A stretch of DNA of 64,000 nt from Bacteroidota bacterium (GCA_013289475.1 JABCZW010000005.1:18081-82080); one strand, 5' to 3'. Positions 9,134 through 30,985 are shown, counted from the stretch's first letter. A program made the numbers and translations. Notes: generated from the sequence alone by a model not told the origin.

Positions 9134-10465
9134 ATGAAAACGCTCTATTTAAGACTAATTACCACTCTAACAATTACGGCAGCATTTTTTCTGCTATCGG
9201 CAGTAACCTATGCTCAAACATGGGATTCAGTAGGCAGTGGTACCGATAAAACCATCAACTCATTGTACGTATCGGGCGGTAGCCTGTACGCAGGTGGTTC
9301 ATTTTCTAATGCGGGCGGTGCACCGGCAGGCCGTGTAGCCCAATGGGATGGTAATATATGGCAAAGTGTTGGCGGTGGCATTTCAAATGCCGGCGTTTGG
9401 TCAATTACATCATTTAGTTCAACTTTATATGCAGGTGGCTTATTCAGCCAGGCAAATGGTAATCCTGCTAATAATGTTGCTGCGCTTAGCGGAGCCGACT
9501 GGAGCGCATTAGGCAGCGGTACTAACCTTATTGTTTATGCCATGGCGAGCTACAAAGGCAATCTATATGTTGGTGGTGGATTTGATAGTGCAGGTGGCAA
9601 ACAGGTAGGGTATATTGCAAAATGGAACGGAACAAAATGGTCTACTGTAGGTACCGGAGTTAATGGCTATGTACAATCTATGGTGGTTTTTAATAGTAAC
9701 CTGTATGTAGGAGGCTCGTTTGATAGTGCCGGAGGTATTGCCGCTAATGGTATTGCCGAATGGACCGGAGGAAAATGGCAGGCCCTGGGTAAGGGAATCA
9801 ACGGGTTTGTAAGTTCATTGGTTGTTTACAACAGCACTCTTTTTGCGGGTGGAAACTTTACACAGGCAGGTGGCAGCCTTGCTAATAATATTGCCGAATG
9901 GGATGGTGCCGCATGGTCGGCTGTTGGTACAGGTACTGATAATAATGTAGCTGCTATGACAAGTTTCAACGGATCATTATATATTGGTGGCCAGTTTTTA
10001 AATGCAGGCGGAAGCCCTGCAAACCACATTGCCAAATGGGATGGAACCACATGGTCGGCTTTAGGGCTTGGCATGAATGATAACGTACTTGCATTGGTAG
10101 TTTATAATTCTGCTTTATATGCAGGTGGCCAGTTCGACAGTGCAGGTGGCGCTCCGGCAAACCATATTGCATCACTTTCAAATTTACCCACGGCTGTCAA
10201 TGCAATCTCTACCTCAGCCGGCAGCGTATCTGTATTCCCAAATCCTAACAATGGCTTATTTACAATAGAGTTATCAGGTACTAGCCCAAAGTCAACAGTA
10301 GAAATTTATAATGTATTAGGAGAAAAGGTGTATTCATCTCAATTCACAATTAATAATTCACAATTAATAATTGATCTTAGCGGCCACCCTGCCGGAATAT
10401 ACATTTACAAAGTAATGAGCCCATCGGGCAATTTCATTTCCTGCGGAAGGGTAATTATACACTAA
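9134..10465 (+). CDS. Secreted beta-propeller repeat protein with T9SS type-A CTD
   Basis: Signal peptide; about six WDGxxWSALGxG / LYxGGxFDSAGG repeats; CTD FPNPNNG...YNVLGEKVY...GIYIYKV; paralog of 2241..3554. Confidence 0.85.
   Translation: MKTLYLRLITTLTITAAFFLLSAVTYAQTWDSVGSGTDKTINSLYVSGGSLYAGGSFSNAGGAPAGRVAQWDGNIWQSVGGGISNAGVWSITSFSSTLYAGGLFSQANGNPANNVAALSGADWSALGSGTNLIVYAMASYKGNLYVGGGFDSAGGKQVGYIAKWNGTKWSTVGTGVNGYVQSMVVFNSNLYVGGSFDSAGGIAANGIAEWTGGKWQALGKGINGFVSSLVVYNSTLFAGGNFTQAGGSLANNIAEWDGAAWSAVGTGTDNNVAAMTSFNGSLYIGGQFLNAGGSPANHIAKWDGTTWSALGLGMNDNVLALVVYNSALYAGGQFDSAGGAPANHIASLSNLPTAVNAISTSAGSVSVFPNPNNGLFTIELSGTSPKSTVEIYNVLGEKVYSSQFTINNSQLIIDLSGHPAGIYIYKVMSPSGNFISCGRVIIH
10341..10375 (+). 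repeat. Heptamer tandem repeat inside CTD coding sequence
   Basis: AATTCAC AATTAAT AATTCAC AATTAAT AATTGAT. Confidence 0.8.
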
Positions 10466-10618
10466 ATCGTATAGATTCTGAGAAGCAAAACTTCACATTA
10501 AAATCACATTAAATTTCCCAGGTAACAATTTGGTTTTCAATATATTATTGCTATCTTCGTACTAAGTTATACTCTACAGGTATATCGGTGATATAATAAC
10601 TTTTAAACCTCTCAACCA

Positions 10619-11395
10619 ATGGCTGAAATTAACTTAACCAGCTCGTATCAGTTCGATGCAATTACTATGGGCTTTACCGACGACAAGCAACTTTATACCA
10701 AAGTATTGTTTGTAAAAAAGACCGCGCCACTTATAGATGTAAGCAGCATTATTTTAAAAGAGGCTGCCTTGAGCGATAAGCTGCAATTGAACATTAAAAT
10801 TACCAAGAATGGTAAAGAAGGTATGTTCCAGGTGGTACAGTTCGACAGGACCGATGATAACGGGAAGAAGTTCCTGGAAGAATTAAAATTGAAGGTTCCG
10901 TCGCCATTGGTGTGGAGCAATAAAACTGAAGAAGCAGAGCCGGCAACACAAGGCATTGGAGGTAAGCGTACCTACCCCATTCAGTTTTGGATGTTTATTA
11001 CCAAAACCATGGCAGGCATGTCTCGGGGTATGCAAATTGCAATGAACTACGGGCTTTTCTGTTTGTTTATTATACCCATACCGCTCTTCATATATGTAAT
11101 AGCGGCTGGTTGCTACCGCATAACCACTACCGATGATGGTATAACTATTAAAAAACTATTCGGCAGTTTTTTTAGCTGGAACGATGTTGACAGGATAGAT
11201 GTGGTACGCTACAATATTGTTATTACCAGTTACGGCGTAAAATCGAATGAAGCTTTTTTATTGGCCTGCACACTATATAGCAGCGGCGGAAAAACCAAAA
11301 ACTTTATAATACGCACCAAAGAAGGTAAAGCTTTTGTACATGATATGGTGGAGCGCAAAAAAATGTCGGCCGAAGTAGAGAAGATATTTATTTAA
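10619..11395 (+). CDS. Hypothetical membrane protein
   Basis: 258 aa with one strongly hydrophobic segment YGLFCLFIIPIPLFIYVIAAG, followed by a bacterial PH-like beta-rich region (ITTTDDGITIKK..FSWNDVDRI). Confidence 0.7.
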   Translation: MAEINLTSSYQFDAITMGFTDDKQLYTKVLFVKKTAPLIDVSSIILKEAALSDKLQLNIKITKNGKEGMFQVVQFDRTDDNGKKFLEELKLKVPSPLVWSNKTEEAEPATQGIGGKRTYPIQFWMFITKTMAGMSRGMQIAMNYGLFCLFIIPIPLFIYVIAAGCYRITTTDDGITIKKLFGSFFSWNDVDRIDVVRYNIVITSYGVKSNEAFLLACTLYSSGGKTKNFIIRTKEGKAFVHDMVERKKMSAEVEKIFI

Positions 11396-12008
11396 CAGTA
11401 GCCGCATATTCTGACCATAGTCCGAATAAAATAATTACTGCACCCGATGCCCTGTTTATCCATAACAGGGCATTGTTATTTATTTTGTAGCGCAACATAC
11501 CAACAACAGTACTAAGTATTAACCACCATGCCGATGAGCCCAGAAAAACTCCGGCTACAACAGCAGTAGCAGGCATATATCCCGTTTGCCCCACTCCTGC
11601 CCCAATGGCAGAGAATATGGCTATGAAAGAAAGTATGGTAGTGGGATTAGATACGGTTAACAATAATGTAGATATGAAATTACCAAACAAGCTTTTGCTT
11701 TCTGCCTTTGCAGCCTCATCGGCAGGCTTGCTAATAAGTATGCGTATACCCAGGTAAAGCAATATCATACCGCCAATGGTGCGTATTAAAGCTTGCTGAG
11801 ACATTAACAAACTTGAAATTACAGTTAAGCCAAAGCCGGCAACAACGCCATAAAAAGTATCGGCTACGGCAGCACCCATACCAGTAACAAGGCCCGATAT
11901 TCTGCCTTCGGTCAGGGTGCGCTTAATGCACAACACACCAATTGGCCCAACGGGAGCAGCTACCGAAAAGCCAATTATAATTCCTTTAATAAAATAAGAA
12001 AGAAGCAT
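11388..12008 (-). CDS. LysE-family translocator
   Basis: GFSVAAPVGPIGVLCIKRTL, GAAVAD, NPTTILSF and GVFLGSSAWW; several transmembrane segments. Confidence 0.9.
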   Translation of the reverse strand: MLLSYFIKGIIIGFSVAAPVGPIGVLCIKRTLTEGRISGLVTGMGAAVADTFYGVVAGFGLTVISSLLMSQQALIRTIGGMILLYLGIRILISKPADEAAKAESKSLFGNFISTLLLTVSNPTTILSFIAIFSAIGAGVGQTGYMPATAVVAGVFLGSSAWWLILSTVVGMLRYKINNNALLWINRASGAVIILFGLWSEYAATVK

Positions 12009-12066
12009 ACTTATTATTTATGATTCAAATTTAATAATAGTGCAACTACTATAATTTTTCGTTATT

Positions 12067-13386
12067 CTATTTGAAAGAATAGAGAAAACTTAAACGATAG
12101 ATAATATAATTGTCGTTTTTCAAAAAATCAGATCCGTAACCATTCTTAATTCCATAATACCATATGTTGGGCATGAAATGAACTTTTTTATCATTCACAG
12201 GTGTCCAATCAAGCCCTGCACTTATAAATGTTTCACTCCAGGTTGCACCCGGCTGCAGCCAGCTGGTGTATATTTCACCTGGAGTATATTGGTATATAGC
12301 ATCTGGTTTATACATATCGTACCGCGCAAAAACATTTAGTTTATCTGCTATAATAGTTGCATGCGCAAATACAGATATTCCGGCCTGGCTTGCGGTTACC
12401 GTATCATTTTTTACCGGGGCCGATGCATAGGTTTCTATTTCGCCATTGGTATTATTCTGCATAAAGCATTCAATACCAAACCCGAATGTTATTGTGTTAT
12501 ACGCTGCGTAAACTTTAAATGTAGATGTAGCGTTTTGGTATAGCTTGCTTGTTTTATATGCTACACCGCCATAGTTAATATAGTCGGCATAAGCACCCAC
12601 CGTAAGCGAGCCATTCAATGTATTTAAGAATGCATTCAATCTGAATTTTTTATCCTTATCGGTTGTACTATTTGGCGGTGTTCTTGCCCCGGTAAATACA
12701 GGCACAGGCACATTGCCCGAATTATCGCCTATCATGGCGCTATACCCTATAAAAGAAGGTACCCGGGCAGAATCATCATGTTTATTTGTCCATAGCTTAC
12801 CATCCAGTGCTATTCCCATATCTGCCGACACGTCAACTTTATGCATATCCATTATTGTTTTTTCAATGCACCTGTAGCCCATTAGGGCCTCAGTATTATA
12901 AGCATTTGCCCATGAGTTGGTGGCTTGCTGCCCTATTTTAAGGTCACTACCTTTGAAAATGTTCTTCCATTTAAAATAAATAAACTTCAAATAAACGGTT
13001 CGGTTATTATTTACATCATAATCACCCTGGTAATCTAACACAGCGTAGGCTGAAAATTTTTCGTTAATAGTATAATTAAAGCCTAAATAGGCTCGTCTTA
13101 TTTCAATTGCATTTTGATATTTGGTACCCGTTTGCGCACCTAGCCCTTTATATTGCATTGAGGTTCCTCTGCCTGCTGAATCGCCGTGGTATACAAAAGC
13201 GTAATCTCCAAATGCATATCCCCAAACATTGGCTCCGGTTGCCGGGCCACCACCGCCATTTGTTATTAGTGAAATAGAATTAGTTTGGTTTAATACCGGC
13301 ACTATGCTCTGTGATTGTACCTCGCCGGCAATAGTCAGCATAAGAGCAACTTTTATAAAACCATTTCTGTTCATAGCTATTCGCAT
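12067..13386 (-). CDS. Outer-membrane porin-like protein (OprO/OprP-like superfamily)
   Basis: EIRRAYLGFNY, YLKFIYFKW, IGQQ, VFARYDMY and terminal YRLSFLYSFK. Start likely at ATG 13386 or 13374 because a TAACTTTG -7 motif overlaps the TTG at 13395. Confidence 0.7.
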   Translation of the reverse strand: MRIAMNRNGFIKVALMLTIAGEVQSQSIVPVLNQTNSISLITNGGGGPATGANVWGYAFGDYAFVYHGDSAGRGTSMQYKGLGAQTGTKYQNAIEIRRAYLGFNYTINEKFSAYAVLDYQGDYDVNNNRTVYLKFIYFKWKNIFKGSDLKIGQQATNSWANAYNTEALMGYRCIEKTIMDMHKVDVSADMGIALDGKLWTNKHDDSARVPSFIGYSAMIGDNSGNVPVPVFTGARTPPNSTTDKDKKFRLNAFLNTLNGSLTVGAYADYINYGGVAYKTSKLYQNATSTFKVYAAYNTITFGFGIECFMQNNTNGEIETYASAPVKNDTVTASQAGISVFAHATIIADKLNVFARYDMYKPDAIYQYTPGEIYTSWLQPGATWSETFISAGLDWTPVNDKKVHFMPNIWYYGIKNGYGSDFLKNDNYIIYRLSFLYSFK

Positions 13387-13461
13387 GGCTTTCAAAGTTA
13401 AAAGTTAAATCATACCCATTAGCTTGTTTTGTATATTTACCATTCATGTTTTATACATACA

Positions 13462-13992
13462 ATGCAATTTGACAATTATATACTGCGTACGCCTGAACTT
13501 AACGACGCAACTTTATTACTCAAAATGGTTTTGCGGGATAAAGAAAGACTCGTTGATTATTTCCCTGTGTCGGTAGGTTCTATGGTTGATATTAGCTCCA
13601 CAAAAAAATACATTTTAGAGAAAATACAACAAACCGAAAGAAAAGAAACATTTACTTTTATACTACACGATACTAAAACTTCAAAACCCATTGGCATAGT
13701 ATTTATTAAAAGCATTGACTGGAGAACCCCCAAAGCCGAGCTTGCTTATTTTATTGACAAGGAACAGGAAGGAAAGGGAATTACGAGTAAAGCACTGAAA
13801 CATATAATCGACTACAGCTTTAACAAATTAAAAATGAATAAACTGTTTTTACGCGTAGCGCCCGAAAATATTGCCAGCCAGCGCGTAGCGTTAAAAAACG
13901 GTTTTGTAAAAGAAGGCGTACTGAGAAAAGACTTTAAAAGAGCCAACGGAAAGCTTACCGATGTATATTATTACGGACTGGTAAAAGAATAG
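13462..13992 (+). CDS. GNAT acetyltransferase, RimJ/RimL type
   Basis: KAELAYFID...GKGITSKAL...NIASQRVALKNGFVKEGVLR; ATG 13462 preferred over TTG 13429. Confidence 0.9.
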   Translation: MQFDNYILRTPELNDATLLLKMVLRDKERLVDYFPVSVGSMVDISSTKKYILEKIQQTERKETFTFILHDTKTSKPIGIVFIKSIDWRTPKAELAYFIDKEQEGKGITSKALKHIIDYSFNKLKMNKLFLRVAPENIASQRVALKNGFVKEGVLRKDFKRANGKLTDVYYYGLVKE

Positions 13993-14012
13993 AGTTTGTA
14001 TATTTACATACC

Positions 14013-14267
14013 ATGGCAAAGCACGAACCAAATAAGGTCATTAAAAGAATATCGCCCTTCTGGAGGGCAATATTGGAGGTTGGTTTTATCATCTTTCTCT
14101 TCTATTCAAACCTGTTGATGGGTGAGTATACGCATTCAGGTATGGGCCAAACTAAAGGGCTTTGGTGGGCAGTACAGGACATTTTCACCTTCACAAATTT
14201 CTCTATTGCTCTTGTGTTATCACTCATTGGCTATATAGTGGTTGAGTTTTTAAGGCGCAGGTTATAA
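14013..14267 (+). CDS. Small membrane protein
   Basis: 84 aa with two hydrophobic segments; stops 2 nt before the next ATG. Confidence 0.7.
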   Translation: MAKHEPNKVIKRISPFWRAILEVGFIIFLFYSNLLMGEYTHSGMGQTKGLWWAVQDIFTFTNFSIALVLSLIGYIVVEFLRRRL

Positions 14268-14269
14268 AA

Positions 14270-15310
14270 ATGTATCATAGCCAGGGAAAATACTTCATTA
14301 TTACTATTGTTTTGCTGTTCCTGGTAAGCTGCAAGCATTCCGGAGACAAAACCACCCTTGCATTTTATTACTGGAAAAGCAATTTCAACATTGACAAAAC
14401 CGATATATCCTATTTAAAAGATGCAGGCGTGCAAAAACTATACCTGCATTTTTTTGATGTGTCGTGGGATGAAACATATAACAGGGCACTGCCTGTAGCT
14501 GAAATGAAATTTGAAGCTGAACCAACTGATAAGTTTCAATATGTGCCTGTAGTATATATAACCACCAGATCGCTCAATAATACCGATGGCGATAGTATTA
14601 ACAAGCTGGCAGAACACATATATGATGAAGTGGAGCACATAGTCACTACCAATAAAATAGCCTATAAAGAACTGCAATTCGATTGTGACTGGACCGATGC
14701 AACACGCAGCAAATACTTTGCTCTGTTATCTTTCTTTCGCAATAAATTCAAATCTACCGGGCAATTGGTTTCAGCAACCATACGCCTGCACCAAATAAAA
14801 TATGCCGACAAAACAGGCGTACCACCTGTAGACAGGGGTATGCTTATGTTCTATAATATGGGTTCAATTAATTCGGTGCCGGGCTACAATTCCATTTACA
14901 ATGATAAAGATGCCGACAAGTATGTAACTTATGTATCAGCCTATACCCTACCTTTAGATGTTGCATTACCTGTATACTCGTGGGCAATCTGGGCGAGGAA
15001 TGGGAAAGTGCAGGATATTATAGAGAAAGCCCTTAACAAAGACTTTGCCGATACCGCCATGTTTCTCTCGGCAGGAAACAATATATTTGTTTCACGCGGT
15101 TCGTTCTTTTTCAGAGGGAAATATTTTATGAAAAGTGATACCGTTAAAACAGAAGAAGTAACACCCGAAATTTGTGAAGATGCTGCCACCAATGTGGCTA
15201 AATACTTGAAGAACGAACCCCGCACGATAAGCTTATTTGAATATGATTCGTTATACCTTTCAACCTATAATAAAAAAGACCTTGAAAAAATCTACACTCT
15301 TTCCCGTTAG
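14270..15310 (+). CDS. Lipoprotein of unknown function, DUF3142-like / TIM-barrel-like
   Basis: Lipobox LVSC; motifs FYYWK, LYLHFFDV, ELQFDCDWT, SATIRLHQ, LMFYNMG and LDVALPVYSW. Confidence 0.7.
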   Translation: MYHSQGKYFIITIVLLFLVSCKHSGDKTTLAFYYWKSNFNIDKTDISYLKDAGVQKLYLHFFDVSWDETYNRALPVAEMKFEAEPTDKFQYVPVVYITTRSLNNTDGDSINKLAEHIYDEVEHIVTTNKIAYKELQFDCDWTDATRSKYFALLSFFRNKFKSTGQLVSATIRLHQIKYADKTGVPPVDRGMLMFYNMGSINSVPGYNSIYNDKDADKYVTYVSAYTLPLDVALPVYSWAIWARNGKVQDIIEKALNKDFADTAMFLSAGNNIFVSRGSFFFRGKYFMKSDTVKTEEVTPEICEDAATNVAKYLKNEPRTISLFEYDSLYLSTYNKKDLEKIYTLSR

Positions 15311-17578: not shown

Positions 17579-19462
17579 ATGAAAAAATATTTACTCCTCT
17601 TTGTTTGCAGCTTACCACTTTGGCTAAATGCACAGCTTACTGCTACACTCACTATTAACACCAACAAGGAGCGCCAGGCTATAAGCCCATATATATACAG
17701 TACCAACGGGCAAAGCAATGACAGGCCCGAAAATATTACCGGCCGCCGCTTAGGTGGTAACCGCATGACTTCATACAACTGGGAAGACAATTTCTCGAAC
17801 GGTGGTAATGATTATATAAATGATAACGACAACTACTTACCATGGAACGCCGGTTTACCATCTGGCCAATATTTAACACCCAATATTGTAAACTCTGCTT
17901 TTCATGATACTTCATTGGTTATGAATTGCAGTTCGCTTATTACATTGCCTATGGCCGGTTATGTGGCGCGCGATGGCAACGGAGTGGTGAGCAGTGCACA
18001 ACAGGCTCCATCTCCGCGCTGGAGACAGGTAGTAAACAAAAAAGGCTCTGCTTTTTCTTTTAAGCCCGATACTGCCGATGGTTTTATTTATGTTGATGAA
18101 TGCATGAACAACCTTATTACACAGTTTGGTAAATCATACACTGCTAAAGGCATTAAGAATTACGAAATGGATAATGAATGGTCGATATGGAACGGCTCGG
18201 ACCCATTGATGCACCCTAACCAGCCTACCATAGCAGAGGCCATAAGCAAATCAACCTCACTGGCTGCAACTATTAAACGCATGGACTCTGTTGCCTATGT
18301 TTTCGGCCCGGTAGATTATGGTTATAACTCCTACCTCACTTTCCAAAATGCAACCGACTGGAGCAGTTATTCATCATACAGCAATTTCGCTTATGCCTAT
18401 TTGCATTTTATGAAGCATGCTTCCGATTCTATCGGGCACCGTTTGTTAGATGTTTATGATATACATTATTATTCATCGGCACAAGGGTTAGATAATAGCA
18501 GCACGCTTGAAGTAGTTGATGGTGGCAATAACGATAAGGGCGTTGCCATAGCACGTATGGAAGCTCCACGCACCTTATGGGATTCAACGTATGTCGAAAA
18601 TAGTTGGATAGGCCAGTATTATAGCCCTGTTGCATACATACCCGCAGTTCAATATGGTATAAACAAATATTACCCCGGCACAAAAATTGCCTTTACTGAA
18701 TACAGCTTCGGAGGAGAAAATGATATTTCGGGTGGCATTGCTTTGGCAGATATGCTTGGTATTTCAGGCCGCTATGGTATTTACTGGTGTTCGGTATGGG
18801 GGCCTGTTAACCAATACTGGGGCTCAGGGTTTAAAATATTCAGGAACTATAACGGAAAGAAAGGAAGTTTTGGCGATTGGCACGTATATGGCAACACCAA
18901 CAACTGGCGTACGTCATCGGTGTATGCTTCATTGCAAAGTACCGATACGGCTATGATGAACATTGTTGTAATGAACAAGGATTATGATTCTACTTTAAAA
19001 GCAACCGTTAACATTACCGCTAATACCAAATTCAACAAAGCCGATATCTATGCCCTCACCAAAACTGATACGCTTATTCATCATATTGGCAGCATTACCA
19101 TTACAGGTAACAAGTTTACATATACTCTCCCTACCCAAACTGTTTACCACTTTATACTAACAGACACAACTTCGGTAACCGGGTTCAACATTATAAACAA
19201 TGACGATGGCATTGCTATTTATCCGAATCCAAGTAACAACGGTGTATTCACCGTTCAAATTACGAATTACGAATTAGGAATTACGAATACCATTGAAGTT
19301 TATAATATGCTGGGAGAAAAAGTTTATTCTACCCCATTTACAATTTACAACTCACCATTTACAATTAATTTAAACAATCAGCCAAACGGCGTTTACTTTA
19401 TCAGAATACTGAATAAAGACAACTCTTTGATAAGCCAAAAAAAGATCATTAAAGTTCAATAA
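17579..19462 (+). CDS. Glycoside hydrolase family 44 (endoglucanase/xyloglucanase-like) with T9SS type-A CTD
   Basis: ISPYIY, RLGGNRMTSYNWE..SNGGNDY, DNE, RLLDVYDIHYY, RTLWD.TY.ENSWI, YPGTKIAFTEY and FRNYNG; CTD YPNPS...KKIIKVQ. Confidence 0.9.
   Translation: MKKYLLLFVCSLPLWLNAQLTATLTINTNKERQAISPYIYSTNGQSNDRPENITGRRLGGNRMTSYNWEDNFSNGGNDYINDNDNYLPWNAGLPSGQYLTPNIVNSAFHDTSLVMNCSSLITLPMAGYVARDGNGVVSSAQQAPSPRWRQVVNKKGSAFSFKPDTADGFIYVDECMNNLITQFGKSYTAKGIKNYEMDNEWSIWNGSDPLMHPNQPTIAEAISKSTSLAATIKRMDSVAYVFGPVDYGYNSYLTFQNATDWSSYSSYSNFAYAYLHFMKHASDSIGHRLLDVYDIHYYSSAQGLDNSSTLEVVDGGNNDKGVAIARMEAPRTLWDSTYVENSWIGQYYSPVAYIPAVQYGINKYYPGTKIAFTEYSFGGENDISGGIALADMLGISGRYGIYWCSVWGPVNQYWGSGFKIFRNYNGKKGSFGDWHVYGNTNNWRTSSVYASLQSTDTAMMNIVVMNKDYDSTLKATVNITANTKFNKADIYALTKTDTLIHHIGSITITGNKFTYTLPTQTVYHFILTDTTSVTGFNIINNDDGIAIYPNPSNNGVFTVQITNYELGITNTIEVYNMLGEKVYSTPFTIYNSPFTINLNNQPNGVYFIRILNKDNSLISQKKIIKVQ
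19258..19285 (+). repeat. Heptamer tandem repeat inside CTD coding sequence
   Basis: AATTACG AATTACG AATTAGG AATTACG, encoding ITNYELGIT. Confidence 0.85.
19335..19369 (+). repeat. Heptamer tandem repeat inside CTD coding sequence
   Basis: CATTTAC AATTTAC AACTCAC CATTTAC AATTAAT, encoding FTIYNSPFTIN. Confidence 0.75.
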
Positions 19463-22119: not shown

Positions 22120-22124
22120 ACGCC

Positions 22125-23384: not shown

Positions 23385-23446
23385 TTCATCTGTTTAAAAA
23401 ACATTTCCTTGTTTTTGTGCAAATCCCAAGGGTTCATTTGAAATTA

Positions 23447-23613
23447 CAAGAAGCGATTAAGGAAGCTGAGAAACTTCAGTTAAACAACAATCATTATTAT
23501 TTTACACTGGGATAGGCACTAATAAAGTCTATAAGAATTTAGAGTTGGCTTTATCATTTGCCAGAACAAAAACAGATAAGCAGACATTAAAGAAGAAGAT
23601 TGAGCGATTATAA
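23447..23613 (+). pseudogene. Remnant of the C-terminal TPR tail of a DUF6596/ECF42-type sigma factor
   Basis: Two out-of-frame pieces, QEAIKEAEKLQLNNNHYYFTLG* (23447-23515) and NKVYKNLELALSFARTKTDKQTLKKKIERL* (23521-23613). They resemble the C-terminus of this Bacteroidota family as I recall it. Confidence 0.5.
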
Positions 23614-23631
23614 TGCCTATCTTTATTGGGC

Positions 23632-24141
23632 ATGAAAACAAAAATGACAATTCTTGTTCTCTCTATTGGTATAATAATCTCATCTTGTCATAAATATACA
23701 ATAGCAGGTTTTTGGTTAGATTATAATAATAAGAACATAACAGATAAAATAAGTGATCAAGGGCCCAGGGGCGGCTACAGAGCAATTCACTGGAAGTTTT
23801 CAAACCCAAATGAGCTAAATACGAATTCAACTTTACAGTTCGCTTCATTAAATGGATGGAAGCTTGTAGACAGTATAAAATACTCAACCGATAGTATTAT
23901 CAAATTAAGTATCAACGATGGCTATGTTTTTTCTTCACCAAAAAACCTCTCTGATAGTATTATAAAGACATTCTTCAAAGAGCCTATTTGGATAAAATCA
24001 GACCTAACTTTATATCGCTTCAAAACAGCGTGGGAACTTATGCAACCAGGTGATGACACCAAAAGCACCGAGATAAATGGCTTTATAATAGTTAGCCATG
24101 ATAATACAGAAATGTGCATCTATCATTATTGGGGAGAATAA
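23632..24141 (+). CDS. Hypothetical lipoprotein
   Basis: Lipobox ISSC; AT-rich; ATG 23632 preferred as start. Confidence 0.7.
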   Translation: MKTKMTILVLSIGIIISSCHKYTIAGFWLDYNNKNITDKISDQGPRGGYRAIHWKFSNPNELNTNSTLQFASLNGWKLVDSIKYSTDSIIKLSINDGYVFSSPKNLSDSIIKTFFKEPIWIKSDLTLYRFKTAWELMQPGDDTKSTEINGFIIVSHDNTEMCIYHYWGE

Positions 24142-24155
24142 TACCCTTTGGCATG

Positions 24156-25208: not shown

Positions 25209-25209
25209 A

Positions 25210-27048
25210 TTAACTTACCTTTTTAAGTTGGGGTGCAGGTGATAAAACTCCTAACACTTGTTTAATAATATTATCTGCTGTTATAGGCATTCCGTTGTAA
25301 TTAAGAACAGGGATAAGTTTGTTGGCATCTGTCCCTAATTCAATCATCATTAGGCTGCGTAATTGTGCATCACGGTTTTGCTCTACTACAAATATCCTGT
25401 CGTGCGAATTGATAAATGCTTCAACCGTTTTGTTGAAAGGGAAAGATTTCAGGCGAAGTGCATCAACCGATACTTTCTTTTCTTTCAATATATCCATTGC
25501 TTCTTCAGCAGCATACGTTGATGTGCCAAAGAAAATAATACCCGACGATGATTCATTCTTCTTCTGGTATATCTGCGGTGCAGGAACCATATCTTTTGCG
25601 GTATGCCATTTCTTAATCAGCCTGTCCATATTGCGGGCGTACGCATCTCCGTCTTCGGTATATACTGCATATTCATCGCGCGATGTGCCACGTGTAACAA
25701 ATGCACCCTTAGTTGGATGTGTACCCGGCAATGTACGGTAAGGTATACCATCACCATCCTTATCCAAGTAACGGCCAAATCTTTCAATCTTGTCAAGTTC
25801 TTCAGCGTTCAATACTTTACCTCTTTTATACACACGCTTGTCATCCCATTCAAAAGGAGGAGAAACGTGATCGTTCATGCCAAGGTCAAGGTCGGTCATA
25901 AGCATTATCGGTGTCTGAAGCTCTTCTGCAAGGTCAAAAGCATCGGCAGTCATATCAAAACATTCCTTAGGAGTGCTTGGGAACAATAACACATGCTTGG
26001 TATCGCCATGCGAAGCATAAGCTGCTTCCATAATATCAGATTGCTGTGTGCGTGTCGGCATACCTGTCGAAGGGCCTGTACGCTGTACATCAATCAACAC
26101 AGCAGGTATCTCTGCAAAATAAGCCAGGCCTAAAAATTCATTCATTAAGGAAACACCAGGGCCGCTGGTAGCAGTAAATGAACGTGCACCGTTCCAGCCT
26201 GCGCCAATAACCATACCCATAGCAGCAAGCTCATCTTCGGCCTGTACAATAGCATAGTTCTTTTTGCCTGTTTCTTTATCTATTCTAAATTCAGATGCAT
26301 AATTATCAAAAGCTTCGGCAACTGATGTAGATGGTGTAATTGGGTACCATGCCACAACTGTTGCACCTGCATATACTGCACCTAAACCACAAGCTGAATT
26401 GCCATCAACCAAAATTGCATCCTTAAGTAAGTCTCGTCTTTCTAAACGAATATCGAGCGGGCATTTAAAATTGGCTTTTACATAATCAACACCCATGTTC
26501 AGGGCTTTCATATTTGGTGCCACCAGTTTTTCTTTGCCTGCAAACTGTTCTTTAAAAAGCTGTTCGAATACGCCCAGTTCAATATCTAACAATGCAGCAA
26601 GCGCACCTACATAAACAATGTTCTTAAATAACTGGCGCTGGCGCGGATCAGTAAATTCCTTGTTGCACATTTCCATTAATGGAATGCCAATGTAATTTAT
26701 ATCGCTACGGATATATTCGGCATGGAGCATTTTACTGCTGTCGTATAAAAAGTAACCGCCCGGCATTACACTTGCAACATCGCCCTTCATACTTTGCGGA
26801 TTAACTGCCACCACTAAATCAATTCCTTCCCTGCGACCCAGATATCCTTTTTCGCTCACACGCACTTCGTACCATGTAGGCAAGCCCTGTATGTTCGATG
26901 GGAAAATGTTCTTGGGGGTAACGGGTATCCCCATGCGGAAAATGGATTTGGTGAACAAAAAATTGGCGCTGGCAGAGCCTGTGCCGTTTACGTTCGCAAA
27001 ACGTACTACAAAGTCGTTTACTTTACTATTACCAGTTCTTCCTGCCAT
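25210..27048 (-). CDS. korA: 2-oxoacid:acceptor oxidoreductase alpha subunit (gamma-alpha fusion)
   Basis: NVNGTGSAS, YPITPSTS, QAEDELAA, TATSGPG, QRTGPSTGMPT and VVEQN. Confidence 0.95.
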   Translation of the reverse strand: MAGRTGNSKVNDFVVRFANVNGTGSASANFLFTKSIFRMGIPVTPKNIFPSNIQGLPTWYEVRVSEKGYLGRREGIDLVVAVNPQSMKGDVASVMPGGYFLYDSSKMLHAEYIRSDINYIGIPLMEMCNKEFTDPRQRQLFKNIVYVGALAALLDIELGVFEQLFKEQFAGKEKLVAPNMKALNMGVDYVKANFKCPLDIRLERRDLLKDAILVDGNSACGLGAVYAGATVVAWYPITPSTSVAEAFDNYASEFRIDKETGKKNYAIVQAEDELAAMGMVIGAGWNGARSFTATSGPGVSLMNEFLGLAYFAEIPAVLIDVQRTGPSTGMPTRTQQSDIMEAAYASHGDTKHVLLFPSTPKECFDMTADAFDLAEELQTPIMLMTDLDLGMNDHVSPPFEWDDKRVYKRGKVLNAEELDKIERFGRYLDKDGDGIPYRTLPGTHPTKGAFVTRGTSRDEYAVYTEDGDAYARNMDRLIKKWHTAKDMVPAPQIYQKKNESSSGIIFFGTSTYAAEEAMDILKEKKVSVDALRLKSFPFNKTVEAFINSHDRIFVVEQNRDAQLRSLMMIELGTDANKLIPVLNYNGMPITADNIIKQVLGVLSPAPQLKKVS

Positions 27049-28823
27049 ATCTTTCCGGCTTTTGTTACGTTATAAAAGAATTGTTGCATATCCCAGGCCG
27101 ATGTAGGGCAGCGCTCTGCGCAAAGGCCGCAGTGCAGGCATACATCTTCGTCCTTTGCCATTATACGCCCGGTAGGCAATATATCTGACACATATATATC
27201 TTGTGTTTTATTTGTTGCAGGCGCTTTTAAGCGTTCGCGCAAATCGGTTTCTTCGCCATTGCTTGTAAATGTAATACACGATGTAGGGCAAACATCTACG
27301 CAGGCATCACACTCAATGCACTTGCTTTCCGAGAATACTGTTTGTATATCGCAGTTAAGACAGCGTTCAGCTTCTTTAAATCCGGTAGCTATATCAAAAC
27401 CAAGTTCTACTTCTTTCTTACGGTTGGTAAGCGTTACCTTTTTATCGGCTTGCGGAACAACATAACGTAAGTCATCTACAACAGCGCTATCGTAACCCCA
27501 TTCGTGAATACCCATTTTCATACTGTGCAGGTTCACCATTGGGTCAGGGCGGTCGTTCATAATATCTTTACCTATGCAACTTAAGTGCATTGATATGGCA
27601 GCCTGGTGCCCATGCGCAACTGCTGTAATTACGTTCTTAGGGCCGAATGCAGCATCACCACCAAAGAATACTTTTTTATTGCTCGATACAAAACTCCTGT
27701 CGTTAACTACCGGCATGTTCCATTTGTCGAATTCAAGCAAATCGCGCTCAATCCATGGGAAGCTATTTTCCTGCCCCACTGCAATCAATACATCATCGGC
27801 TTCAATAAACACATCGGGTTCTCCGGTAGGCACTAACGTACGCTTTCCTTTATCATCTTTTACTGCCTTAACTTTCTGAAAGGTCATACCGGTTAACTTG
27901 CCATTCTCCACTACAAAAGATACAGGTACATGGTTATCGATAATTGGAATATCTTCATGTTGTGCGTCTTCCTTTTCCCAAGGCGAAGCTTTCATTTCAG
28001 CAAAAGGGCTGCGCACTATTACCTTTACCTGTTCACCACCCAGGCGGCGCGAAGTACGGCAGCAGTCCATAGCGGTGTTACCACCACCCAAAACAATTAC
28101 CTTTTTACCAATTTTGCTGGTATGCTCAAATGCCACGCTGGAAAGCCAGTCGATACCAATATGGATATTTGCAGCACCTTCCTTACGGCCTTTTAAGTCA
28201 GGCAGATCACGGCCACGGGGTGCGCCTGTACCGACAAATACAGCATCGTAATGTTTATCTAATATTTCTTTTAAGCTCTTAACATAAGTATTAAAGTGCT
28301 GGTGTATGCCAAGGTCGAGGATATAATCTACTTCTTCGTTCAATACACTTTCCGGCAAGCGGAAAGAAGGAATCTGGCTGCGCATAAAACCGCCGCCAAG
28401 TTTCTGTTCGTCGTATAAATGAATTTCGTAACCCAATGGTGCAAGATCTCGTGCAACAGCCAATGAAGCAGGGCCTGCACCTATTAAGGCAACCTTTTTA
28501 CCGTTTGGTTTAAAAGGGCCTTTGGGCATAAACTTGGTTACATCGCCTTTGTTATCGGCAGCTACACGCTTCAGGCGGCAAATAGCCACCGGTTCTTTCT
28601 CAACACGGCCACGGCGGCATGCAGGCTCACAAGGGCGGTCGCAAGTACGGCCCAATACTCCCGGAAACACATTCGAATCCCAGTTTATCATATAGGCCTC
28701 GTCGTACTTTTGTTCGGCTATAAGCCTGATGTATTCGGGTACCGGGGTATGCGCAGGACAAGCGTACTGGCAATCTACTACCTTATGGAAGTATTCCGGG
28801 TTTTTAATATCTGTTGGTTTCAC
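27018..28823 (-). CDS. GltD/SudA-like FAD/NAD(P) oxidoreductase with C-terminal 2x[4Fe-4S] domain (KorC-like)
   Basis: CQYACPAH, GRTCDRPCEPAC, GAGPA, GGGNTAMD, CIECDACVDVCP and CLHCGLCAERCP; GTG 28823 preferred as start. Confidence 0.9.
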   Translation of the reverse strand: MKPTDIKNPEYFHKVVDCQYACPAHTPVPEYIRLIAEQKYDEAYMINWDSNVFPGVLGRTCDRPCEPACRRGRVEKEPVAICRLKRVAADNKGDVTKFMPKGPFKPNGKKVALIGAGPASLAVARDLAPLGYEIHLYDEQKLGGGFMRSQIPSFRLPESVLNEEVDYILDLGIHQHFNTYVKSLKEILDKHYDAVFVGTGAPRGRDLPDLKGRKEGAANIHIGIDWLSSVAFEHTSKIGKKVIVLGGGNTAMDCCRTSRRLGGEQVKVIVRSPFAEMKASPWEKEDAQHEDIPIIDNHVPVSFVVENGKLTGMTFQKVKAVKDDKGKRTLVPTGEPDVFIEADDVLIAVGQENSFPWIERDLLEFDKWNMPVVNDRSFVSSNKKVFFGGDAAFGPKNVITAVAHGHQAAISMHLSCIGKDIMNDRPDPMVNLHSMKMGIHEWGYDSAVVDDLRYVVPQADKKVTLTNRKKEVELGFDIATGFKEAERCLNCDIQTVFSESKCIECDACVDVCPTSCITFTSNGEETDLRERLKAPATNKTQDIYVSDILPTGRIMAKDEDVCLHCGLCAERCPTSAWDMQQFFYNVTKAGKIWQEELVIVK

Positions 28824-28949
28824 GCGCTGGGATTCTTTCGTTAATTGTTTATCCTCCAAAAAATGATAGTGGCAAATGTAGTAATTTGTACATAGTATTA
28901 CCTATTGAATAAGGGGAAATTGCAAACAGGATATTGACCGTACTCCTTG

Positions 28950-29028
28950 TTTGCCCGAAACCCCTAAAGGGGCTTGGAAACAATAACACTAAAACTAAAC
29001 AGTTAAAGCCCCTTTAGGGGTTTGGGGC
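28950..29028. repeat. Intergenic REP-like doublet (inverted repeat with spacer)
   Basis: GCCCGAAACCCCTAAAGGGGCTT (28953-28975) and AAGCCCCTTTAGGGGTTTGGGGC (29006-29028); each arm contains its own CCCC-N4-GGGG hairpin. Confidence 0.85.
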
Positions 29029-29093
29029 TGAATTGAGTAATAACTGGTAGTATTATTTTTTTACTAAATTCGTCACTCTAAAATTCATCTGTC

Positions 29094-29600
29094 ATGGAAG
29101 AAACAGTAAGGATACGACTGGAAAGCATGTTCCAGGAAGCTGACCGCCTCTTGAACGAGAAGGCTATTGCCGAAGGGTTTAACATGTTACAATCTATTAT
29201 ACAGGAAGCCCCTGGATTTGGTAAAGCGTACAACCACCTCGGGTGGATATATGAATCACAGTACAAGGATTATGTAAATGCTGAAAAGCAATACAAACTG
29301 GCATTAGAAAATGCACCCGAATACCATGCTACTTATTATAACTATGCCATTGTATTGTCTATACTCCAGCGTTGGGATGACCTTACAAACCTGTTGAATA
29401 AAGGACTCACCGTACCCGGTGTAAACAAAGGCACATTGCACAATGAGTTTGGTATTATGTACGAAACACAGGGCAAGTTCCAGCAAGCTATTGAAGCTTA
29501 TAAGAAATACGCCCAAACTACTTTAGTAAATAAGCAGTTAGATACAGCCAAGGAATCTATTGAGCGCTGCAAGAAGAAGCTGGAGATACAGAACCTGTAG
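29094..29600 (+). CDS. Tetratricopeptide-repeat protein
   Basis: PGFGKAYNHLGWIY, AEKQYKLALENAPEY and GIMYETQGKFQQAIEAYKK. Confidence 0.85.
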   Translation: MEETVRIRLESMFQEADRLLNEKAIAEGFNMLQSIIQEAPGFGKAYNHLGWIYESQYKDYVNAEKQYKLALENAPEYHATYYNYAIVLSILQRWDDLTNLLNKGLTVPGVNKGTLHNEFGIMYETQGKFQQAIEAYKKYAQTTLVNKQLDTAKESIERCKKKLEIQNL

Positions 29601-29638
29601 TATTCACTTTGGCCCAAATTTTGCTTACATTTACCACT

Positions 29639-30985
29639 ATGAAGCAAGTAAACAAAGTCTGTTTAAGCCTATTAGTTTTACTTCCTTTATCTATTGCCGC
29701 TAATGCGCAGTGGTATAGGTTAAAAAACTATCCTAATCTCAATTCGGGTGGTGATACTAATATTTATACAAGTTCCCCCTACTTACCTTATGTGGCAGGT
29801 AATGGAGTTATTTTATATGGAGCCATTGCGCATTCCGTTTACTTTGGTCATAGTGGTGATGAAACACTTATGGAATCAAAGAATGATTTGGATTCTTGTA
29901 AATATGTTTATAGTAATGGAGGTATAGGTCCTGGCAATATTTATTCTATAGCTTCAAAAAACGATTCAACCATCTGTTTTGTTTATACCAATTCCGATTA
30001 TATAGGGACTTTGCTTGTACACTCAAACACAAATTTCCACCCCACTCCTAAACGTATTGAAATAAATCAACCTGCCGGTGGTTACGGTAGTACAATGCCT
30101 TCTTGTTTTTCAGATAATTATATATACATGTCAACCTTAATTAGTTACTTACCTATTGATAGTATCGTTCTATACCGTATCACTATAGCAAATGATTCTA
30201 TTAAAAGATATGTAACAATGAAATATAGAAGCCCTGTTCAATTACATTTCACGTCTGATAGTACCGGTTTTATGCTTTGCACTTATGTAACTGACTCAGC
30301 CAAAAGTGCTTTAGTCAAAACATCAGATTCAGGAAAAACATGGAGAAATAGTTTTTTAGATTCTTCGCACATTATTAAAGGATTCTGTTTCCCTACCCCA
30401 AGTATTGGCTACCTGACCGAGAATAATGGCAATATTTATAAGACTATAGATGCAGGGAATACCTGGATTCAACTAACAAGTCCAACTACTATGACTTTAA
30501 ACTGTGTAAGCTTTAGCAATGGTACAAATGGGTACATAGGTGGGAAAGCCGGTATACTATATAAAACTACTGATGGCGGTACCAGTTGGACCAAGGAAAT
30601 AAGTGGCGACCCAAACTCCATTACTTCGCTTTATACATTTGATACTGTTGCCTATTTTATAGATACCAATTACAATATCTATAAAAATGAGAAGCCAATG
30701 AGCATTGAAAGTATACAAGCAAATAGAATTGAGGCAAGGGCTTTCCCGAATCCGAACAACAATGGAGTATTCTCCATTGAGTTAAAAGTGAATAGTGAAA
30801 AGTTTAAAGTGGAGGTGTATACTGTATTAGGGGAAGAAGTTTATTCAGCCTCTTTGCCCCAAACCCCTAAAGAGGCTTTGCGCAAGATTGATTTAGGCAG
30901 TCAGCCTACAGGCATTTATTTGTACAGAATTATTTCAGAAAAAGGAGATTTTATTGCAAGCGGCAAGCTGATAATTCAGAAATAG
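29639..30985 (+). CDS. YCF48/BNR-repeat protein with T9SS type-A CTD
   Basis: KTSDSGKTW, KTIDAGNTW and KTTDGGTSW boxes; CTD FPNPNNNG...GIYLYRI...GKLIIQK; signal peptide starts at ATG 29639. Confidence 0.85.
   Translation: MKQVNKVCLSLLVLLPLSIAANAQWYRLKNYPNLNSGGDTNIYTSSPYLPYVAGNGVILYGAIAHSVYFGHSGDETLMESKNDLDSCKYVYSNGGIGPGNIYSIASKNDSTICFVYTNSDYIGTLLVHSNTNFHPTPKRIEINQPAGGYGSTMPSCFSDNYIYMSTLISYLPIDSIVLYRITIANDSIKRYVTMKYRSPVQLHFTSDSTGFMLCTYVTDSAKSALVKTSDSGKTWRNSFLDSSHIIKGFCFPTPSIGYLTENNGNIYKTIDAGNTWIQLTSPTTMTLNCVSFSNGTNGYIGGKAGILYKTTDGGTSWTKEISGDPNSITSLYTFDTVAYFIDTNYNIYKNEKPMSIESIQANRIEARAFPNPNNNGVFSIELKVNSEKFKVEVYTVLGEEVYSASLPQTPKEALRKIDLGSQPTGIYLYRIISEKGDFIASGKLIIQK
30780..30814 (+). repeat. Heptamer tandem repeat inside CTD coding sequence
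   Basis: AGTTAAA AGTGAAT AGTGAAA AGTTTAA AGTGGAG, encoding LKVNSEKFKVE. Confidence 0.7.
30856..30879 (+). repeat. Single REP-like arm inside CTD coding sequence
   Basis: GCCCCAAACCCCTAAAGAGGCTTT is 23/24 identical to the reverse complement of 29005-29028; encodes PQTPKEAL. Confidence 0.85.

Follow-up and report, generated by a model that had tools for sequence, protein, structure and literature searches.

The genome analysed here represents an uncultured soil Bacteroidia genus that is rich in dispersed short repeats of two kinds, heptamer arrays and REP-like palindromes. Copies of either kind are found in frame within one amplified subfamily of type-A T9SS C-terminal sorting domains (CTDs), at two segments of the domain. 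The observation itself, made initially in the window (the whole 64-kb stretch of DNA that was analysed), is confirmed and extends well beyond it. It is rather probable that the dispersed repeats are passengers in two weakly constrained CTD segments, where they turn over at the DNA level, and on the best reading part of this conserved protein domain is determined by selfish repeat DNA and not by protein selection. The literature search found no paper describing heptamer repeats in these CTD slots.

Membership in the type-A T9SS C-terminal sorting domains agrees with the profile, with the C-terminal position and with the presence of a translocon gene, and a seven-stranded beta-sandwich fold, with export and removal by PorU, would be expected of the domain. 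Profile searches (PF18962 / TIGR04183) gave 144 type-A CTD matches over the whole genome, with 140 above the curated cut-off, and SprA (TIGR04189), the translocon component searched for, was found with 480 bits as a partial match at a contig end. Slot 1 is delimited by PNPxNGxF(T/S)x and (V/I)E(V/I)YN and slot 2 by LGEKVYS and I(D/N)L, and the two flank a conserved YNxLGEKV block. Slots were mapped to strands by motif likeness to published structures, and the block is taken to be the equivalent of L-β3-β4. In the available portions of the respective reports, the L-β3-β4 motif is described as essential in P. gingivalis (Mizgalska et al.), and CTDs are said to accept wide variation except in L-β3-β4 and at the C-terminus (PMC11285876).

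In the window, the PF18962 profile search located type-A CTDs at exactly seven places, and hmmscan confirmed the domain in four of the window proteins. Repeats are present in three of the seven, each of which terminates at a stop codon (10465, 19462 and 30985), i.e., stands at the extreme C-terminus, and the five repeat blocks that the first-pass annotation had placed in them all lie at the stated positions, the four heptamer blocks being recovered by Tandem Repeats Finder (TRF). In a gene with a beta-propeller cargo (9134-10465), the CTD (10232..10465, plus strand; PF18962, E 3e-13), whose span 10232-10438 is the genome match C5:28312-28518, holds a slot-2 array (10341..10375, plus strand) that encodes QFTINNSQLII. 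This array is a perfect 14-nt unit of two heptamers repeated 2.3 times; TRF gives period 14, 2.3 copies, 100% match and a score of 64 at 10341-10372, and period 7 with 3.6 copies at 10348-10372. The ortholog of this gene in the same-genus genome G003 has a different array at the equivalent position.

Both slots are occupied in the CTD (19217..19462, plus strand; profile match 19217-19450) of a GH44 glycoside hydrolase gene (17579-19462; PF12891 and PF18962). Slot 1 contains 4.4 units of AATTACG type (19258..19288, plus strand; TRF 91% match) that encode QITNYELGITN; intergenic copies differ from this array by 3-4 mismatches over 31 nt, and an IVP cassette (C32:15422/15847) has arms of the same family. 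The slot-2 array (19335..19369, plus strand), of ATTTACA/ACTCACC type, encodes PFTIYNSPFTI, has period 7 and 4.4 copies according to TRF (75% match at 19336-19366) and has no match in the genome beyond CTDs at up to 4 mismatches. The heptamer fillers at 10341 and 19335, described earlier as different, proved to be one family with the two peptides given above. In the BNR/sortilin-like cargo gene (29609-30985), slot 1 of the CTD (30743..30985, plus strand; PF18962, E 3.4e-9; profile match 30743-30976) holds an AGTTAAA/AGTGAAT-type array (30780..30811, plus strand; TRF period 7, 4.6 copies, 76%) that encodes ELKVNSEKFKV and differs by 1 mismatch from the array in the CTD C32:13356 and by 3 mismatches from intergenic copies. 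Its slot 2 is filled by an in-frame arm of a dispersed GC-rich REP-like palindrome (30852..30881, plus strand), which encodes LPQTPKEAL and lengthens the slot by 3 residues. The earlier naming of this segment as a REP arm was correct in that it is a member of a genuine family of dispersed palindromes (two 17-mers as queries gave 25-26 matches, with 3 mismatches allowed), which frequently form inverted doublets; one such doublet is intergenic at 28949..29031 (no strand assigned). The other four CTDs (2250..2462 and 32516..32731, minus strand; 4767..4997 and 31875..32087, plus strand; all PF18962) show no lag-7 signal at 17/24 matches or more and are free of repeats, as had been stated. Over the 64 kb, 4/5 of the TRF period-7 rows lie inside CTDs.

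Genome-wide, segments with 7-base periodicity number 19 in CTDs (0.61/kb) and 16 in the remaining coding DNA (0.007/kb), a difference in density of about 90-fold, and the comparison proposed in the first-pass annotation came out in favour of the CTDs. Among the 16 other segments one is a run of N, seven lie at most 154 nt from an over-called ORF start and one is located in a CTD linker. CTDs make up 1.19% of the bases of the genome, yet hold 20/193 period-7 and 5/58 period-14 TRF rows; of the other period-7 rows, 88 are intergenic and 85 fall in crude ORFs, and many of the lag-7 segments inside crude ORFs stand at over-called 5′ ends. At a threshold of at least 20/24 matches, lag 7 was detected in 6/141 CTDs, compared with 0.04 on average (maximum 1 in 200) after synonymous-codon shuffles and 0 after shuffling the codon order of the CTDs; all other lags between 1 and 21 gave 0 at this threshold, except lag 14 with 3. 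It was thus shown that the pattern is of the DNA level, as proposed, and specific to lags 7 and 14. The positions of the repeats within CTDs form two tight clusters.

Intergenic arrays of the A[AG]TTANN type, about 31 nt or 4.4 heptamer units long, are scattered in the genome and have copies in the slot-1 arrays; the dispersed arrays occur singly, as hairpin pairs or as inverted arms of IVP genes. Most arrays comprise about 4 units plus 3 nt, with exceptions in the CTD L078 (9 units) and in long arrays of families elsewhere in the class. One slot-1 array is identical to an intergenic copy in 31/31 bases, and there are four more intergenic copies at 1 mismatch. All slot-1 arrays detected (7/7) are in sense orientation, and in CTD copies TTA stands in units where an in-frame TGA would occur. 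Among paralogs the similarity of slot-1 DNA equals or exceeds that of the conserved middle block. The slot flanks showed no target-site motif. In slot 2, 9/10 full-length arrays have no non-CTD match in the genome at up to 4 mismatches, and this heptamer family may have originated in situ or been remodelled there.

The slots had been described as loops, but the heptamer slots are no additional loops: CTDs with arrays are not longer than array-free ones, and the arrays encode ordinary parts of the domain. Palindrome arms add from 3 to about 10 residues in slot 2, and heptamer arrays leave the length unchanged; because of this conserved length, the latter look like replacement or conversion. Such length-neutral replacement is not explained by simple insertion, which counts against the passenger interpretation. 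The proposal that the slots are hotspots capturing mobile repeats stands in part: they are recurrent homes of repeats, given the intergenic copies at 0-1 mismatch, the many families, the ortholog that has arrays where four others have none, and the empty genome G010. Capture by insertion is conjectural, given the preserved length of the heptamer arrays, and so is the mobility of the slot-2 heptamer family, most of whose full-length arrays have no non-CTD match.

In related CTDs of other uncultured Bacteroidia MAGs, arrays of many unit families occupy both slots in 41/76 cases (a share inflated by selection, see below), and in the same set lags 5, 6 and 9 gave 0 and lag 8 gave 2. Slot 1 in related genomes contains at least 8 unit families and slot 2 several heptamer and palindrome families, and peptides of the type PQ[TN]PKGAL are found in slot 2 of CTDs of other MAGs (L049, L101, L060). 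CTD stretches of other Bacteroidota genomes, which are AT-rich (mean GC 35%), contained arrays in 0/88 cases. Within the genus, G003 has 162 arrays and 20/30 array-bearing CTDs, a fraction that, like 41/76, is inflated by selection, since profile A1 was built from array-bearing CTDs; G010, which is 99% complete, has 0 arrays genome-wide and 0/30 array-bearing CTDs, and these zeros are not affected by the choice of profile. The CTD subfamily therefore exists independently of arrays. One group of orthologs has arrays in G000 and G003 but not in four other species, and the slot length is equal in G000, G003, G008 and G012.

A mechanism can be proposed in which both slots would be weakly constrained, because the CTD is presumably only an export tag that is cleaved off, and would be bracketed by DNA whose sequence is conserved in the more than 100 paralogs of each genome, so that a repeat entering there would be tolerated. 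It could then spread from one CTD to another via the conserved flanks, through recombination or conversion, be exchanged for other arrays and change through unit slippage, with selection removing only versions that carry a stop or a frameshift. The repeats would not be needed for secretion; they would make both segments hypervariable and now and then break a CTD. Tolerance alone is not enough for the 90-fold excess, for which we infer an amplifying conversion among paralogs. The perfect 14-nt duplication at 10341 is counted among the signs of turnover, as are one frameshifted CTD that has lost 7 nt, the 9-unit array of L078 with its 7 added residues, the high similarity of slot-1 DNA among paralogs, and a chimeric array, IKSEELGITN, found in L035 and L286, which are possibly one locus.

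Other explanations of these arrays were considered. It is most improbable that no DNA-level process exists and that the pattern arises secondarily from protein selection on a repeated peptide, from paralog ancestry or from AT-rich low complexity. Although the CTDs concerned form one recently expanded subfamily with slot-2 peptides that are alike between genes, this explanation is contradicted by the shuffles, which preserve the peptide and remove the signal, by the specificity for two lags, by identical arrays in non-coding DNA and by the array-free controls, both the AT-rich CTD stretches and G010. A contingency switch, in which gain or loss of a heptamer frameshifts the CTD and reversibly toggles the export of a single cargo, seems unlikely. 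It would agree with a unit length that is not a multiple of 3, with the CTD C54:10030-10262, which is frameshifted in slot 1 and has a slot exactly 7 nt shorter than its intact paralogs, with L078, where the array is longer by three units in frame and 7 extra residues are present, and with the 2 vs 3 heptamer units seen between strains in the Coxiella IVS (PMC4990558, available text). However, the arrays are short, nearly fixed at about 4.4 units and imperfect, which makes them a poor substrate for slippage, only 1/144 CTD matches is frameshifted, and in orthologs the array decays and the gene is kept. Assembled contigs of 4 runs showed no 7-nt indel at arrays, a result that, coming from contigs only, is uninformative either way.

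It is doubtful whether the arrays serve as a nucleic-acid signal, read by a factor that would tie secreted proteins into a post-transcriptional regulon; the candidates are the pentameric IVP/S23p-type protein whose genes the arrays border, or, with subsequent cutting by RNase III, a complementary arm on a different transcript. Inverted arms of arrays do border the IVP genes, which encode a 23S-rRNA-IVS-type four-helix bundle (PF05635, E 1e-29), with an array within 250 nt at 19/22 loci and on both sides at 14/22, and the numbers of IVP copies and arrays co-vary over 18 genomes (rho 0.62; G010 lacks both), but the correlation is weak per megabase (rho 0.38, p 0.12) and the related genomes are not independent. 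The slot-1 DNA, whose conservation among paralogs is no lower than that of the essential protein block, and the IVS stems, which are RNase III substrates in Coxiella according to the available text of PMC4990558, would also suit such a role; against it stand the many unit families per slot, the free decay in orthologs, the retention of the array-free CTD subfamily in G010 and the fact that slots 1 and 2 are not complementary in general. That arrays are recombination seeds, i.e., short homologies for swapping CTD modules or halves between cargo genes, is improbable, even though exchange of CTDs between cargoes is real: the GH44 gene has an array-type CTD and four orthologs another CTD type, with an identity of 59-92% over most of the length that drops to 17-27% inside the CTD, in the final window scored. 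Across CTDs, the family in slot 1 is independent of that in slot 2, the FTIxNSxFTI array of slot 2 is present in two CTD subfamilies, G003 contains a pair of orphan CTD 3′ fragments, L281 and L282, that are truncated at slot 2, and L286 is a cargo-less CTD ORF with the chimeric array. Yet no junction of an exchange was traced to an array, the conserved flanks of the CTD offer better homology than the arrays do, and CTD genes are bracketed by arrays no more frequently than others, an array lying within 300 nt downstream of 6/144 CTD genes vs 46/1986 other genes. From the three roles named in the first-pass annotation, that of tolerated passengers fits best, slippage has one supporting 7-nt case, and exchange of CTDs occurs, with a role of the repeats in it being conjectural; its interpretation as a whole is partly supported.

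Heptanucleotide tandem repeats are known in bacteria, the cyanobacterial STRR being one example. According to the available text of MacGregor 2015 (PMC4679880), TAACTGA arrays occur in Beggiatoaceae, cyanobacteria and some Bacteroidetes, and the arrays described here resemble them in their tandem, head-to-tail 7-nt units, mostly intergenic location, sporadic phylogenetic distribution and rare in-ORF copies at the protein periphery; the TCAGTYA units that relatives carry in slot 1 correspond to TAACTGA as its reverse complement. They differ in having a fixed size of about 4.4 units, not a variable and long copy number, in the many unit families within one genome, and in showing no bias just upstream of start codons (12/56 sense vs 12/56 antisense). 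The systematic in-frame occupation of a secretion domain is absent from that part of the MacGregor 2015 account.

The 23S IVS of Coxiella burnetii with S23p, as described in the available text of PMC4990558, likewise places a four-helix-bundle gene within inverted repeats of tandem heptamers, an arrangement shared by the IVP loci with arrays on both sides. The IVP cassettes, unlike the IVS, stand between ordinary genes and not in rRNA, and the CTD fillers are single arms with no gene and no partner arm. The idea that the fillers are themselves IVS-like cassettes was rejected, as they are solo arms without an ORF and the two slots lack general complementarity. Dispersed palindromes in inverted doublets and a RAYT gene in the genome (NF047646, 105 bits) recall REP/REPIN systems; however, RAYT presence does not track the array load, being above the cut-off in 6/18 genomes of the genus, including the array-free G010, and below it in the array-richest G003 and G002, and in G000 arrays lie on only one side of the RAYT gene, so that this explanation of the array load was also discarded. 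Simple-sequence contingency loci share an in-ORF unit that is not a multiple of 3 and, in one copy here, a frameshift by one unit, but the present arrays are short, imperfect and of fixed copy number. A further likeness is to Rickettsia palindromic elements (RPEs; PMC10969869, available text), in which a dispersed intergenic repeat also lies in frame inside ORFs and encodes part of the protein in tolerated places; the CTD fillers, too, are found both outside genes and in frame within them. RPEs are palindromes of about 150 bp that add residues to many unrelated genes, whereas the fillers described here are 31-nt length-keeping arrays or single palindrome arms, are confined to two fixed places of one domain family, and belong to many unit families that alternate at one place of the CTD.

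The genome studied here is a 2.62-Mb assembly of 114 contigs (39% G+C, 57% complete), and the public runs that contain its DNA are soil metagenomes. It encodes a SprA translocon gene together with 144 matches to PF18962 (Por_Secre_tail), 140 of them over the curated cut-off. Seven type-A T9SS C-terminal secretion domains (CTDs) are found in the window, and the C-terminal PF18962 was confirmed by hmmscan in four genes: 9134-10465 (beta-propeller-like cargo), 17579-19462 (GH44 glycoside hydrolase cargo), 29609-30985 (BNR/sortilin-like cargo) and 31080-32093. The gene immediately before the first CTD gene with an array encodes a LexA-like repressor (HTH and Peptidase_S24; 8208-8900). Four giant proteins of 1719-3000 aa, with Ig_7, PKD and type-B CHU_C secretion domains, are encoded on the minus strand at 34190-63476, and their genes contain internal tandem DNA repeats of 231-489 nt.

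In three of the seven CTDs the first-pass annotation had placed repeat DNA in two slots. Slot 1 is delimited here by PNPxNGxF(T/S)x and (V/I)E(V/I)YN, and slot 2 by LGEKVYS and I(D/N)L. Each of the heptamer blocks that it named was recovered by Tandem Repeats Finder, namely a period-7 block at 10348-10372 and a perfect 14-nt unit in 2.3 copies at 10341-10372, followed by period-7 arrays at 19258-19288 (4.4 copies, 91%), 19336-19366 (4.4 copies) and 30780-30811 (4.6 copies); CTDs account for four of the five period-7 rows of the 64-kb window. The supposed REP arm also proved to be repeat DNA, since 30852-30881 is a member of a dispersed family of GC-rich palindromes: two 17-mers taken from it gave 25-26 matches at no more than three mismatches, and inverted doublets are frequent in this family, one being intergenic in the window (28949-29031). 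The window contains no Rfam match at gathering score.

The tests by which the annotation itself could have been refuted were run across the whole genome. CTDs make up 1.19% of its bases, yet they hold 20 of the 193 period-7 rows and 5 of the 58 period-14 rows, with a share of 0-4% at the remaining periods. When identity at a given lag was scored over 24 positions in 141 CTDs, six reached at least 20/24 at lag 7 and three at lag 14, and no CTD did so at the remaining lags between 1 and 21; at least 17/24 was reached by 15 CTDs at lag 7 and by 14 at lag 14. After 200 synonymous-codon shuffles that preserved every amino acid, the number of CTDs at or above 20/24 at lag 7 was 0.04 on average and 1 at maximum, and codon-order shuffles left 0 CTDs at lag 7. 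Segments scoring at least 18/24 amounted to 19 in CTDs (0.61/kb), 63 in intergenic DNA (0.31/kb) and 16 in other coding DNA (0.007/kb), the last count being an overstated background from crudely called ORFs: one is a run of N, seven lie within 154 nt of a crude ORF 5′ end and one is situated in a CTD linker, immediately ahead of PNP. At lags 5, 6, 8, 10 and 11 no such segment occurs in CTDs, and the arrays form two tight clusters, approximately 20-76 and 91-147 nt past the first P of PNP. Repeats are thus commoner in CTDs than in other coding DNA and the periodicity is lost on shuffling; being lag-specific, shuffle-sensitive and clustered in CTDs, the pattern is therefore real, DNA-level and CTD-specific. 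Among the very few in-frame arrays outside CTDs is an AATTGAT run (peptide QQLIIDNCQL) common to two PP2C/SpoIIE-like paralogs, located approximately 95 nt before the stop (C16:6546-6564 and C101:1932-1968; C numbers denote contigs of this assembly).

Similar arrays are abundant outside genes. After orientation by a common core, 66 of them follow the pattern (A[AG]T[TG]ANN)x4 with three further bases, one of the units frequently being a variant. Three forms were seen: solo arrays, inverted pairs folding into long hairpins, and inverted pairs approximately 400 nt apart. The slot-1 arrays of CTDs are members of these intergenic families. That of the CTD at C84:6056 is identical in 31 of 31 bases to an intergenic array at C76:6090 and differs by one mismatch from four further intergenic copies, and arrays of the AGTTAAA/AGTGAAA type have intergenic copies at 2-3 mismatches. 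All seven detected slot-1 arrays lie in gene-sense orientation, and in CTD copies TTA replaces TGA in those units where TGA would be in frame, which is a mark of selection on imported sequence. For slot-2 heptamer arrays (ATTCACA-like, peptide FTIxNSxFTI), 9 of 10 full-length copies were without a non-CTD match at up to four mismatches. A search of the array flanks for a shared target-site motif gave no clear one.

The idea that the repeats are added loops had to be given up for heptamers: CTDs with and without arrays can be aligned with no additional length, and the heptamer slots are not insertions in length. Lengthening of slot 2 is true of the palindrome arms only, whereas heptamer arrays keep the length. 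The block between the slots, (V/I)E(V/I)YNxLGEKVYS, by motif likeness probably corresponds to the beta3-L-beta4 strand-loop-strand motif, which in P. gingivalis is reported to be conserved and essential for export, with wide variation elsewhere in the CTD (Mizgalska et al., PMC11285876). A third array position was noticed at C31:20276-20308, where an AGTTAAA-type array occupies the linker immediately before PNP; both slots of this CTD are filled by arrays as well.

Related genomes show how widely the slots are filled. In the array-rich congener G003 the ortholog of gene 9134-10465 (65% identical) carries a TCAGTCA/TCAGTTA array in slot 1 (peptide QSSVISHQSSV) and an array of its own in slot 2, while slot 1 of the gene in the window is equal in length and holds array remnants only. 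Orthologs in four other species (G015, G007, G008, G012) have no arrays, and in a G013 paralog two GC-rich hairpins enlarge slot 2. When 185,579 species genomes were scanned with a profile of 13 array-type CTDs, 80 loci were obtained; 79 have titles naming Bacteroidia, Bacteroidetes, Chitinophagales or Sphingobacteriaceae MAGs, and that of the unparsed L104 names Bifidobacterium. At least one of the two slots contains a lag-7 array in 41 of the 76 parseable loci, a fraction inflated by a profile that favours array types; lags 5, 6 and 9 gave none and lag 8 gave two. Slot 1 of these 76 loci holds at least eight unit families, the peptides in relatives including KSEKLKV, ITNYELGI, INNYQLGI, SSVVSGQLSV, KSEELRGKS, ANSQQLLANS, ENGELKM and the nine-unit QVTGYRLQVTDYRLQITD, and in slot 2 several heptamer families occur alongside three types of peptide derived from palindromes, PQ[TN]PKGAL (the type of the window), SSNSSKGGEFxSLPSGGEGWA and LRQAQGD. 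In a phylum-wide sample of other Bacteroidota CTD stretches (mean G+C 35%), 0 of 88 attained as much as 16/24 at lag 7.

In the genome studied the array pattern was counted 55 times vs. 3 times for a reversed-pattern control. Of 17 same-genus genomes, 16 have 10-162 occurrences each; the exception is G010, 99% complete, with 0 occurrences. Among the 30 best CTD matches of each genome, 20 in G003 (162 arrays) reached at least 17/24 at lag 7 and 0 in G010, where the highest score was 14; because the profile favours array-type peptides, positive fractions are inflated and the zero is unaffected. It follows that the CTD subfamily functions without arrays and that CTD arrays go with genome arrays. 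G010 also has no PF05635 gene, yet RAYT is encoded and the CTD subfamily persists; this genome can be regarded as a natural array-free control.

Several changes inside genes are signs that arrays are altered at the DNA level. The ortholog lacks the perfect 14-nt duplication seen at 10341, a nine-unit array at L078 (L numbers denote loci from other genomes) adds exactly seven residues, a chimeric array of two families (IKSEELGITN) was found at L035 and L286, possibly one locus, and the CTD at C54:10030-10262 has a frameshift in slot 1, being 7 nt shorter there than its intact paralogs. In eight paralogs with AGTGAAA-type arrays (28 pairs) the slot-1 DNA is at least as similar as the conserved middle block, and slot 2 of the CTD at L093, a locus of another MAG, is interrupted by two in-frame stops. 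A perfect TTTTCAC array of 3.4 copies lies approximately 10 nt past the stop codon of the frameshifted gene, and L286, from G007, is a cargo-less CTD-only ORF of 105 aa that carries the chimeric slot-1 array. Two orphan CTD 3′ fragments of G003 (L281, L282) are truncated so that they start at slot 2, preceded by non-coding DNA rich in repeats. Exchange of CTDs between cargoes, suggested in the first-pass annotation, does occur: the GH44 protein (17579-19462) is 59-92% identical to its orthologs L002, L004 and L005 over most of its length, and in the last two scored windows, which span the CTD, identity is 31-42% and then 17-27%, the orthologs having in common another, array-free CTD type. In the ortholog alignment the junction of this swap could not be placed at an array.

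The evidence is best fitted by a passenger model. The pattern is DNA-level in nature, shares its identity with intergenic arrays, recurs with many unit families and depends on the genome-wide repeat load, and the arrays are dispensable. Dispersed repeats of the lineage would occupy two weakly constrained CTD segments, where they would be filtered for open frames, and would spread and turn over by DNA-level processes, perhaps aided by conserved sequence on either side of each slot in over 100 paralogs; we infer the first entry of a repeat into a slot, conversion among paralogs and neutrality. Frame switching by slippage, also proposed earlier, is a candidate role with one supporting case, the CTD frameshifted by 7 nt; assembled Logan contigs (not reads) from four soil-metagenome runs, one of which is probably the source, showed no 7-nt indel at arrays and are uninformative on unit-number variants. 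Pairing of slots 1 and 2 as hairpin arms was not supported: near mirror images are seen in some AGTGAAT/ATTCACA slot pairs and are not general, and the duplex energy of two-array CTDs (mean z -0.67, n=6) did not differ from that of array-free ones (-0.27, n=118); the independent assortment of slot-1 and slot-2 families in relatives also opposes it. A mobilising role of RAYT was likewise not supported: both Y1-transposase genes of the genome, a RAYT gene (NF047646, 105 bits) and an IS200-like gene at C46:16400-17801 and C18:23200-24559, are within approximately 600 nt of clusters of different heptamer arrays, but within the genus the number of arrays does not follow the presence of RAYT. Nor was a bracketing of CTD cassettes by arrays supported, with arrays within 300 nt downstream of 6 of 144 CTD genes vs. 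46 of 1986 others. A leader role at start codons, as in Beggiatoaceae, is not supported by the equal numbers of sense and antisense arrays upstream of starts (12/56 each).

Small ORFs between inverted arrays gave no sign of being transposases: one is a PF05635 protein (23S_rRNA_IVP, four-helix-bundle) and the other is without a Pfam match. The PF05635 gene is enclosed by an inverted array pair at C32:15422-15877. Among 22 such genes inspected, 2 from this genome and 20 (L261-L280) from seven same-genus genomes, all located between ordinary genes, a lag-7 array lies within 250 nt in 19 loci and on both sides in 14. The arms of the pairs inspected are reverse-complementary to each other, and their unit families vary among loci (AATTAGT, TAAGGAG, TCAGTTA, AGCCAAT, TAGTCGT, AATTAGG, AATTACG), several of them recurring in slot 1. 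Over 18 genomes, related and so not independent, IVP copy number correlates with array count (Spearman 0.62), G010 having neither; when both are expressed per megabase, only a weak correlation is seen (0.38, p 0.12). Since CTD arrays use the same words as IVP-cassette arms, they could expose T9SS cargo genes or mRNAs to whatever reads the arms, whether this is the IVP protein, which forms rings, or a trans-acting complementary arm together with RNase III. A recognition system of selfish elements could then be wired into dozens of secreted-protein genes, the arrays being not mere passengers, and could offer a common handle for control or diversification, one-unit frameshift switching included. 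This whole reading we consider unlikely, the passenger model being preferred.

Dispersed repeat DNA can thus write part of a conserved, functionally defined domain, recurrently, at fixed places and lineage-wide. For T9SS, two CTD segments flanking a conserved block are marked as freely replaceable, which is useful in the design of secretion tags, and caution is needed as DNA repeats shape CTD alignments and trees in such genomes. For repeat biology, bacterial heptamer repeats, IVS-type four-helix-bundle cassettes and in-frame selfish DNA, formerly separate, are now linked, and array-free and array-rich species of one genus provide natural contrasts on what spreads arrays.

No literature linking T9SS or CTDs with heptanucleotide or REP repeats was found, and the supplementary in-ORF list of MacGregor (PMC4679880) may hold an example. 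The TAACTGA repeat of MacGregor is the reverse complement of the TCAGTCA/TCAGTTA-type slot-1 array in G003. Heptanucleotide repeats as such are described in PMC4679880, where they are given as the commonest long simple repeats (Mrazek, 2007, as cited therein), and in-frame selfish repeats are known, e.g., the RPEs of Rickettsia (reviewed in PMC10969869). The finding is of a known kind, selfish repeat DNA inside coding sequence, and what the present analysis adds is the quantitative test, the array-free sister genome and the link between CTD fillers and cassette arms. The IVP cassette, a PF05635 gene with inverted array arms, matches in design the ORF-bearing intervening sequence described for Coxiella 23S rRNA, in which the inverted repeats around an S23p gene include tandem heptamers, are RNase III substrates and differ among strains in their number of units (PMC4990558).
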